This document shows, piece after piece, positions 31,858 through 33,390 of a stretch of 64,000 bases of DNA. Where the stretch lies: the NCBI GenBank assembly GCA_001750645.1, contig MEIF01000228.1, positions 7,236-71,235 of the forward strand. Direction: 5' to 3'. Below the pieces are notes generated by a model that was not told where the DNA came from, ran no database searches, and saw only the letters and a list, made by a program, of their open reading frames with translations. Within the stretch, counting starts at the first letter, position 1. Each line of letters begins with the position of its first letter. Origin of the DNA: Gammaproteobacteria bacterium AqS3 (GTDB taxonomy: Bacteria > Pseudomonadota > Gammaproteobacteria > MEIF01 > AqS3). The position numbers were made by a program, and so were the translations under genes.

Positions 31858-32838
31858 ATGGCCGCACCCCTCATCGCCACCACCCCCGCAGGCGAGCGCG
31901 CACTGAGGCAGCACGCTCCCGAAATCGCCGAACAGTGCCGCTTCCTCCTGCTGAATGAAGACGGCTCGCTGCCGGCGGACGCCTCCGAGGCTGCGGACAT
32001 CTTGCTGGTGTTCTACGACCTGTTCTTCACGGCTCATGTCAGCGCCTCTCCGATAACCGAAAACCTCTCGGCCGTTGCCGGCGAGTGCAGCTGGGTTCAG
32101 GCCGGGTCGGCCGGCTGGGACGATGCGTTTCTGGGTTCGATCAAGCACAGCGCCCGGCGCTACTGCAATGCCTCGGGCGTGCATGCCCCCTCGATAGCCA
32201 ACTACGTCTTCGCCCACTTTCTGGCGCACTGCAAGCGGCTGGATCTGCACCGGCTTCAGCAGGCCGAGCACATCTGGCAGGGCCAGGGGGGAGACGGCGA
32301 ACTGACCGAGGCACATCTGGGCATCGTCGGCTACGGCGGCATCGGTCGGGAAATCGCCCGCCTGGGGCGCGCCTTCAACATGCACATCACCGCCATTCGA
32401 CGCTCGCCGCAGCCAGACCCGCACGCCGATGAGGTCTGGGGCACTGATCGGCTGGATGAATTGATTGCCCAGAGCGCCTACCTGGCGCTGTGCGCACCCC
32501 ATTCCTCCGAGACCGAGGGGCTGCTGGATGCCCGCCGTCTGGCGCTGATGCCCGAGGGCTCCGTGCTGGTCAATGTCGGGCGGGGCTCCGCCATCGTCGA
32601 GGCCGATCTCATCGAGGCGCTGAAGCGGGGACGGCCCGCCTACGCCGCCATTGACACCACGGCGACAGAGCCTCTGCCAGAGGACTCGCCGCTGTGGGAC
32701 ACCCCCAATCTCTACATCTCTCCGCACGACTCGGCCTTCTCGCCGCATTCAGTGCCGAGGTTGATGAAGCTGTTCGCCGAGAACATCCGCCGACATATCG
32801 CCGGAGAGGAATTGCTCAATCTGGTGACTGAGGACTAG
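31858..32838 (+). CDS. D-isomer-specific 2-hydroxyacid dehydrogenase family protein (NAD-binding)
   Basis: The motifs GIVGYGGIGREIAR (GxGxxG), NVGRG and ISPH are present with a catalytic His. The start is at MAAPLIATTP. Confidence 0.75.
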   Translation: MAAPLIATTPAGERALRQHAPEIAEQCRFLLLNEDGSLPADASEAADILLVFYDLFFTAHVSASPITENLSAVAGECSWVQAGSAGWDDAFLGSIKHSARRYCNASGVHAPSIANYVFAHFLAHCKRLDLHRLQQAEHIWQGQGGDGELTEAHLGIVGYGGIGREIARLGRAFNMHITAIRRSPQPDPHADEVWGTDRLDELIAQSAYLALCAPHSSETEGLLDARRLALMPEGSVLVNVGRGSAIVEADLIEALKRGRPAYAAIDTTATEPLPEDSPLWDTPNLYISPHDSAFSPHSVPRLMKLFAENIRRHIAGEELLNLVTED

Positions 32839-33390
32839 GGTCAGTTCGCTGGGTTGGGATCAGAATCTGAAGGATTCTGGAATTAGATATAAGTGCCTGT
32901 TTTTATTGAACTTTTACGATGTCCCAGACATCGATATCGACCGCGCATAGGATGTTTCTCTGAATGAAATCGCACTTGGGGGGACATCTCGCCAGAGAGG
33001 GGGTTGCTCAATCTGGTGACTGAGGACTAAGGTCAGTCCGCCGGGACGGGATCAGAATTCCCCAAGATTTTAAGTTTATATAAACACCTGTTTTTATTGA
33101 ACTTTTACGATGCCCCAGACATCGATATTGACCGCGCACAGGACGTTTCTCTGAATGAAGTCGCACTTGGTGGGGGACATCTCGCCAGAGAGGGGTTGCT
33201 CAATCTGGTAACTGAGGACTGGGGTCAGTCCGTCGGGTTGGGATCAGAGGCCCCCAAGATTCTGAGGTTTATATAAACACCTGTTTTTATTGAATTTTTA
33301 CGATGCCCTAGACATCGATATTGACCGCGCGCAGGGCGTTCTTCTGAATGAAGTCGTGCCTCGGGGCAACCTCATCGCCCATCAGGGTCG
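32815..33390. repeat. Tandem triplication of a 192-bp unit spanning the 3' end of the dehydrogenase gene, the intergenic spacer and the 3' end of gyrB
   Basis: The unit boundary CTCAATCTGGT recurs at 32815, 33007 and 33199, an exact 192-bp period. Copies 2 and 3 carry fragments like GLLNLVTED(*) of the dehydrogenase end. Copies 1 and 2 carry decayed gyrB C-terminal coding (DFIQ(R/K)NxLxAVNIDV) on the minus sense. Copy 3 merges into the authentic gyrB end. Confidence 0.85.

Follow-up and report, generated by a model that had tools for sequence, protein, structure and literature searches.

A diverged 192-bp tandem triplication between convergent dehydrogenase and gyrB genes of the sponge symbiont AqS3, a probable neutral relic of DNA rearrangement

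Between a D-2-hydroxyacid dehydrogenase gene (plus strand, ending at 32838) and gyrB (minus strand, ending at 33308), a convergent gene pair, the genome of AqS3 carries a 192-bp segment three times in tandem, each copy holding the 3' ends of both genes. The array is best read as a real but ordinary feature, and it is probably a selectively neutral, non-functional, minisatellite-like relic of DNA rearrangement. AqS3 has been described as an extracellular symbiont that the sponge Amphimedon queenslandica passes on vertically, and its assembly was built from short reads and chromatin-contact data (bioRxiv 10.64898/2026.08.05.743132). All positions refer to the 64-kb stretch analyzed (64,000 nucleotides, hereafter the window). 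The features of the locus, with unit boundaries as set in this analysis and no strand assigned within the array, are the following:

31858-32838, plus strand: D-2-hydroxyacid dehydrogenase gene (Pfam 2-Hacid_dh_C, E 1e-46), with its true 3' end in unit 1
32792-32983: unit 1, comprising the true dehydrogenase 3' end (32792-32838), a spacer and a pseudo-gyrB 3' end (32924-32983; stop changed to TGG)
32896-32921: T-rich core of 26 nt in unit 1, the best-conserved spacer block, with copies at 32896, 33087 and 33280
32974-33003: junction 1, a novel join of gyrB end to dehydrogenase end, ...CACTTGGGGG / GACATCTCGCCAGAGAGG
32984-33175: unit 2, the chimeric middle unit, comprising a pseudo-dehydrogenase end (32984-33030; TAA), a spacer and a pseudo-gyrB end (33115-33175; stop changed to TGG)
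33166-33195: junction 2, a copy of junction 1 with one extra T and one G fewer, ...CACTTGGTGGGG / GACATCTCGCCAGAGAGG
33176-33367: unit 3, comprising a pseudo-dehydrogenase end (33176-33222; stop changed to TGG), a spacer and the true gyrB 3' end (33308-33367)
33308-35719, minus strand: gyrB, 803 aa, intact, with six gyrase B Pfam domains and its true 3' end in unit 3

Tandem Repeats Finder, the check proposed in the preliminary description of this DNA, placed the array at 32792-33356 (period 192, 2.9 copies, 86% matches, score 810) and detected no other long-period array in the 64-kb window. The anchor CTCAATCTGGT recurs at 32815, 33007 and 33199, which bears out the exact 192-bp triplication across a convergent junction, with pseudo-3' ends of both genes, that had been described there. 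The copies lie head-to-tail at a constant period, the arrangement that marks a tandem duplication. In each unit, the dehydrogenase 3' end contributes about 47 nt and the gyrB 3' end, on the other strand, about 60 nt, with about 85 nt of AT-rich spacer between them; the dehydrogenase homology, first given as some 26 bp, starts at 32792, and the gyrB match, first given as about 85 bp, had included the 3' untranslated core along with the coding part. Pairwise identity is 84% between units 1 and 2, 88% between units 2 and 3, and 77% between units 1 and 3, corresponding to divergences of 16%, 12% and 23% in place of the 10-15% estimated earlier. The longest identical runs between units measure 26, 15 and 28 nt. 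The two junctions go back to a single join, ...GTCGCACTTGG(T)GGGG / GACATCTCGCCAGAGAGG, and the outer flanks are continuous with the dehydrogenase gene at unit 1 and with gyrB at unit 3. The triplication has widened the distance between the true stop codons of the two genes from about 85 to 469 nt, and the G+C content of this stretch is 47%, compared with 60% in the window.

The 26-nt core, CCTGTTTTTATTGAAYTTTTACGATG, occurs exactly three times, compared with 0 occurrences expected in shuffled sequence. Conservation of this core, and of a perfect 12-nt palindrome, GTTTATATAAAC, exceeds that of the remaining spacer, but with three sequences the difference is not significant. The palindrome was considered as a protein-binding site and rejected, as unit 1 lacks it and the window has no copies other than those of units 2 and 3. 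A sensitive blastn search of the 64-kb window returned no further copies of the unit or spacer outside the array, so that within these 64 kb the sequence does not behave as a dispersed repeat of the REP/BIME, MITE or MIRU kind.

The true ends of the two genes can be told from their copies by comparison with homologues: the true dehydrogenase end is found only in unit 1 and the true gyrB end only in unit 3, and both agree with their homologues. The dehydrogenase C-terminus, ...HIAGEELLNLVTED, aligns with proteins ending ...G(E/K)xL(V/I)N.V, and the GenBank product (326 aa) is 100% identical to the protein encoded in the window. The longest open reading frame starts at 31819, 13 codons upstream of the GenBank start at 31858 (339 vs 326 aa); homologue lengths of 319-324 aa favor the shorter, 326-aa form. 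The gyrB protein is 100% identical to MBF2754451.1, and its C-terminus likewise aligns with homologues.

All three dehydrogenase ends read ...LLNLVTED, followed by TAG in the real gene (32836-32838), by TAA in unit 2 (33028-33030) and by TGG in unit 3 (33220-33222), the last two codons just as first reported. Written out with the codon that follows, they are ...RRHIAGEELLNLVTED-TAG in unit 1, continuous with the gene, GDISPERGLLNLVTED-TAA in unit 2 and GGHLAREGLLNLVTED-TGG in unit 3. On the minus strand, the orphan gyrB ends read CDFIQRNILCAVDIDVW in unit 1 and CDFIQRNVLCAVNIDVW in unit 2, both with an altered stop (CDFIQRNILCAVDIDV-TGG and CDFIQRNVLCAVNIDV-TGG, respectively), and unit 3 is continuous with gyrB as its real end. 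The change from stop to Trp in these decayed C-termini had been described correctly for units 1 and 2, but the residues given for them do not hold throughout, as unit 1 has D in place of N (AVDIDV). The motif N-A-L is kept at the gyrB end in 7 of the 7 relatives compared, and the Gly of G-(E/K)-x-L-(V/I)-N is kept in dehydrogenase relatives; in the orphans, NAL has been replaced by NVL or NIL, and the Gly of G-E/K-x-L by Arg. Judged by these conserved residues and stops, which have been lost or changed, the four other gene-end copies are decaying fragments. When the polarity of changes is taken from outgroup proteins, the orphan gyrB ends of units 1 and 2 have in common the derived changes of stop to Trp, Ala to Val (then to Ile in unit 1) and Arg to Cys, and the orphan dehydrogenase ends of units 2 and 3 have in common the change of Gly to Arg.

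Site patterns among the units point to a history in two steps. Across 49 variable ungapped columns, units 2 and 3 are grouped by 27, units 1 and 2 by 18, and units 1 and 3 by only 4. To the left of column 105 (about position 32895), 22 sites unite units 2 and 3 and 7 unite units 1 and 2; to the right, these counts are 5 and 11. The split is associated with a Fisher p of 0.005 over all sites, which weakens to 0.05-0.09 when an indel-rich block is collapsed to 1-3 events, and with p = 0.016 in a single-breakpoint permutation test; these are modest statistics, and sites inside the indel block are not independent. Unit 2 is thus chimeric, its left half resembling unit 3 and its right half resembling unit 1, and the exchange interval (columns 105-121) matches the longest stretch that all three units conserve (CCTGTTTTTATTGAA). 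These patterns suggest that the first duplication was followed by at least one unequal exchange, which lends some support to the earlier idea of a recombination hot spot near the origin, the array lying about 5-6 kb from dnaA. Divergence since the exchange amounts to 11 of 105 sites on the left (unit 2 vs unit 3) and 5 of 89 on the right (unit 1 vs unit 2), compared with roughly 15-26% for the older split, so the age of the first duplication would be about two to three times that of the expansion. The shared derived states of the orphan ends, together with the chimeric middle unit, are as a two-step history predicts.

The same observations bear on whether the array is real. The record is an Illumina-based MAG (GCA_015278115.1; methods in bioRxiv 10.64898/2026.08.05.743132) and no independent assembly was found, a setting in which short-read assembly might, for example, string strain variants together into a false array. 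No identical run between units exceeds 28 nt, however, so the units would follow distinct k-mer paths at any usual k, and the novel join of gyrB end to dehydrogenase end exists in two versions, which a single-copy locus cannot supply. The chimeric pattern and the decayed stops also resemble evolution and not misjoining. An assembly artefact is accordingly judged unlikely from the sequence, to the point where we give it very little credence, in keeping with the first assessment that the units are too diverged to be a recent assembly duplication.

We propose that the array arose by an illegitimate join, which would have duplicated a 192-bp segment comprising the last 47 nt of the dehydrogenase gene, the spacer and the last 60 nt of gyrB. 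The join may have come about by slippage during replication or by unequal exchange between sister chromatids, with microhomology playing little or no part. An origin by microhomology through the shared hexamer ATCGCC was rejected, as the junction retains the dehydrogenase-side GACAT to the left of the hexamer; since the join lies at GGGG / GACAT, left of the ATCGCC common to both parents, no microhomology longer than 1-2 nt is recoverable. The first unit would have kept the dehydrogenase whole and the last unit gyrB, both genes being left whole because they converge, and the event would have cost nothing because the new material consisted only of promoter-less 3' fragments. The two units may then have diverged, the orphan gyrB end losing its stop codon and the conserved Ala of NAL, and the orphan dehydrogenase end losing its conserved Gly. 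Homologous recombination out of register, in which unit 2 on one copy of the chromosome paired with unit 1 on another and crossed over in or near the conserved T-rich core, could next have produced three units, the new middle one combining the left part of the last unit with the right part of the first. Further pairwise divergence of 6-10% would have followed among all units. As identical runs now extend over only 15-28 nt, the array should be hard to delete by homologous recombination, and its survival may be explained by the fact that neither gene was ever damaged, together with the removal of long identical runs by divergence. Vertical inheritance of the symbiont may also slow the purging of such DNA. 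The earlier statement that the array "has been maintained" does not follow from its divergence, which itself removes the identical stretches needed for deletion.

Persistence through 12-23% divergence, despite the usual deletion bias of bacteria, could nevertheless hint at selection, and one candidate for a selected role is transcription termination. Under this explanation, selection would keep the array as a stack of terminators, or as an insulating spacer, against convergent transcription into the 3' end of the essential gyrB gene, and the reverse. The exact position between convergent genes would suit such a role, as would the growth of the stop-to-stop gap and the T-rich core of each unit (plus strand; A-rich on the gyrB strand), in which only one change in 26 nt is seen. 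An AU-rich hairpin ending in a T-run can also form, but only in units 2 and 3: the small hairpin and T-run first described for every unit, aaacacctgtttttatt, are replaced in unit 1 by aagtgcctgtttttatt, where the AU-rich stem is absent, and unit 1 is the one that dehydrogenase transcripts meet first. The local hairpins differ among the three units with no compensatory pattern, and a G+C-rich stem flanked by A- and T-tracts, which would mark an intrinsic bidirectional terminator, is found in no unit. A consensus scan returned 0 terminator-like sites in 32300-33900, compared with 1.4 expected in shuffles. In the surrounding 20 kb, canonical intrinsic terminators show hardly any enrichment (19 found vs 13.2±3.8 expected, mostly inside genes), and for this reason their absence from the array counts only weakly against a role in termination. 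The fold of the unit, proposed earlier as a check on the hairpin, gave z values for the spacers of -1.35 to +1.25 on either strand against shuffled sequence, that is, energies no better than those of shuffles; for the whole array z is about -1.5 on either strand (only 20 shuffles), and no unusually stable fold is present in the spacers or the array as a whole. Taken together, these results lend no support to the bidirectional terminator stack put forward in the preliminary description, and we regard the terminator or insulator role as improbable.

A second suggestion made there was that the units encode small RNAs, or decoys, antisense to the mRNA 3' ends of gyrB and the dehydrogenase gene. 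If transcribed from the opposite strand, the orphan ends would be 80-90% complementary to the true mRNA 3' ends. The consensus scan found no promoter-like site inside the array, a search of Rfam gave no match in it either at gathering thresholds or at E<=10, and stable structure is lacking from it, as seen above. The orphan ends have also changed freely, including at positions that would lower complementarity, and any convergent pair with read-through yields such antisense RNA without a repeat. An antisense role thus appears very improbable. A small ORF encoded by the units was likewise rejected: no small ORF is conserved, as the register of the array's ORFs shifts from unit to unit and the corresponding frame of unit 1 runs into a stop.

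Duplication of a gene's 3' end is also seen elsewhere in the window. About 30 kb away, at a further convergent junction, a 189-nt direct repeat (3268-3456 and 4079-4267) has copies that are 93% identical; an ORF of 198 aa on the minus strand (4082-4678) has its true 3' end in the right copy, and the left copy is an orphan. Each copy follows a low-GC (42-44%) ORF for a membrane protein (2695-3243 and 3533-4066, both on the plus strand), and the two proteins are only 28% identical. From the contrast between 93% and 28% identity, the repeat is far younger, or more homogenized, than the genes, and a single simple tandem duplication does not explain it.

That a second orphan 3' end lies beside low-GC genes, and that 3'-end duplication therefore recurs in the genome, would be compatible with an origin of the array in site-specific integration and subsequent loss of a mobile element carrying replacement 3' ends, leaving a duplication like that of an attachment site. 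Yet no cargo, integrase or element boundary is found between the units, and each holds the whole spacer and both gene ends in head-to-tail order, a signature of tandem duplication and not of attL/attR, so we consider a mobile-element remnant extremely unlikely. It is somewhat easier to imagine, though still doubtful, that the array is one product of a recurrent process duplicating the 3' ends of convergent genes in AqS3, its AT-rich spacer perhaps being kept for easing a conflict of transcription or supercoiling where gyrB ends.

Exact-protein look-ups of gyrB, the dehydrogenase (with both starts) and a 59-aa ORF of the array returned no other contig, and a scan of JGI metagenomes with the 26-nt core gave no match. 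A look-up of recF likewise led only to JADHEJ010000044.1, the sequence in GCA_015278115.1 of which the window forms an identical part. The closest gyrB among 5.8 billion proteins is 64% identical and is followed, after 10 bp, by a convergent acyltransferase gene; the closest dehydrogenases are 52-54% identical and are not adjacent to gyrB in those relatives. For the C-terminal region of gyrB, relatives in species-representative genomes reach at most 37% identity, or 52-55% where the comparison is limited to the last ~80 residues. As gyrB and the dehydrogenase gene are not neighbors in the nearest relatives, the junction appears to be young and lineage-specific.

Several known systems resemble the array in part. 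Spontaneous tandem duplication followed by unequal homologous exchange constitutes the duplication-amplification pathway of bacteria, with RecA-independent slipped misalignment available for the first join; examples from this literature include work by Reams and Roth and by Bzymek and Lovett. The array shares with it head-to-tail units, one novel junction copied into a later junction, intact flanking genes, a change of copy number by out-of-register recombination and a chimeric internal unit. The duplications usually met in this pathway are young, identical and unstable, whereas the array has short units of 192 bp, does not extend beyond a gene junction and is 12-23% diverged. Bacterial minisatellites, or VNTR loci, such as the MIRU arrays of mycobacteria, are intergenic, and like them the array is tandem and intergenic, has units within the range of tens to hundreds of bp and shows evidence of a past change in copy number. 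Unlike MIRU, which form dispersed families at many loci, its unit occupies one locus in the window and is built from local gene ends. Bidirectional intrinsic terminators occur at convergent gene pairs, and the array too lies where two stop codons converge and has an AT-rich tract; it differs from them in having neither the G+C-rich stem between A- and T-tracts nor a match in the scan. Microhomology-associated tandem duplications are described in plant mitogenomes (PMC7643612). As in tandem duplication-random loss in organelles, the duplicated segments of the array span gene boundaries and leave decaying fragments between intact genes, but gene order has not changed here and only 3' fragments were ever duplicated.

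For annotation, the array illustrates how duplication of a gene junction can spare both genes and yet leave behind pieces of their ends that might be mistaken for pseudogenes, small ORFs or regulatory repeats. A two-step history, duplication and then unequal exchange, would also be readable from the divergence of the units. If copy number varies among populations of AqS3, strains of the symbiont could conveniently be told apart by this locus. It would be biologically notable only if transcripts showed termination or small RNAs in each unit.

Beyond gyrB, the genes on the minus strand are recF, dnaN and dnaA. An origin function, or a cluster of DnaA boxes, was rejected for the array, as the repeat contains no TTATCCACA-like boxes: at up to 1 mismatch, none lies between 29524 and 39005. 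The perfect box nearest to the array lies upstream of dnaA at 39616. As further perfect boxes occur at scattered positions (3759 and 45220), box clustering does not make the origin obvious. An aldehyde dehydrogenase gene (39546-41117) lies between rpmH-rnpA-yidD-yidC and dnaA, and this neighbor on the dnaA side is also present in the relative with 64% gyrB identity. Elsewhere in the window, at 11377-11426, there is a G-rich array of about 7 copies of TTTGGGG/TTGGGG, which resembles the telomeric repeats of ciliates and could in principle form a G-quadruplex.
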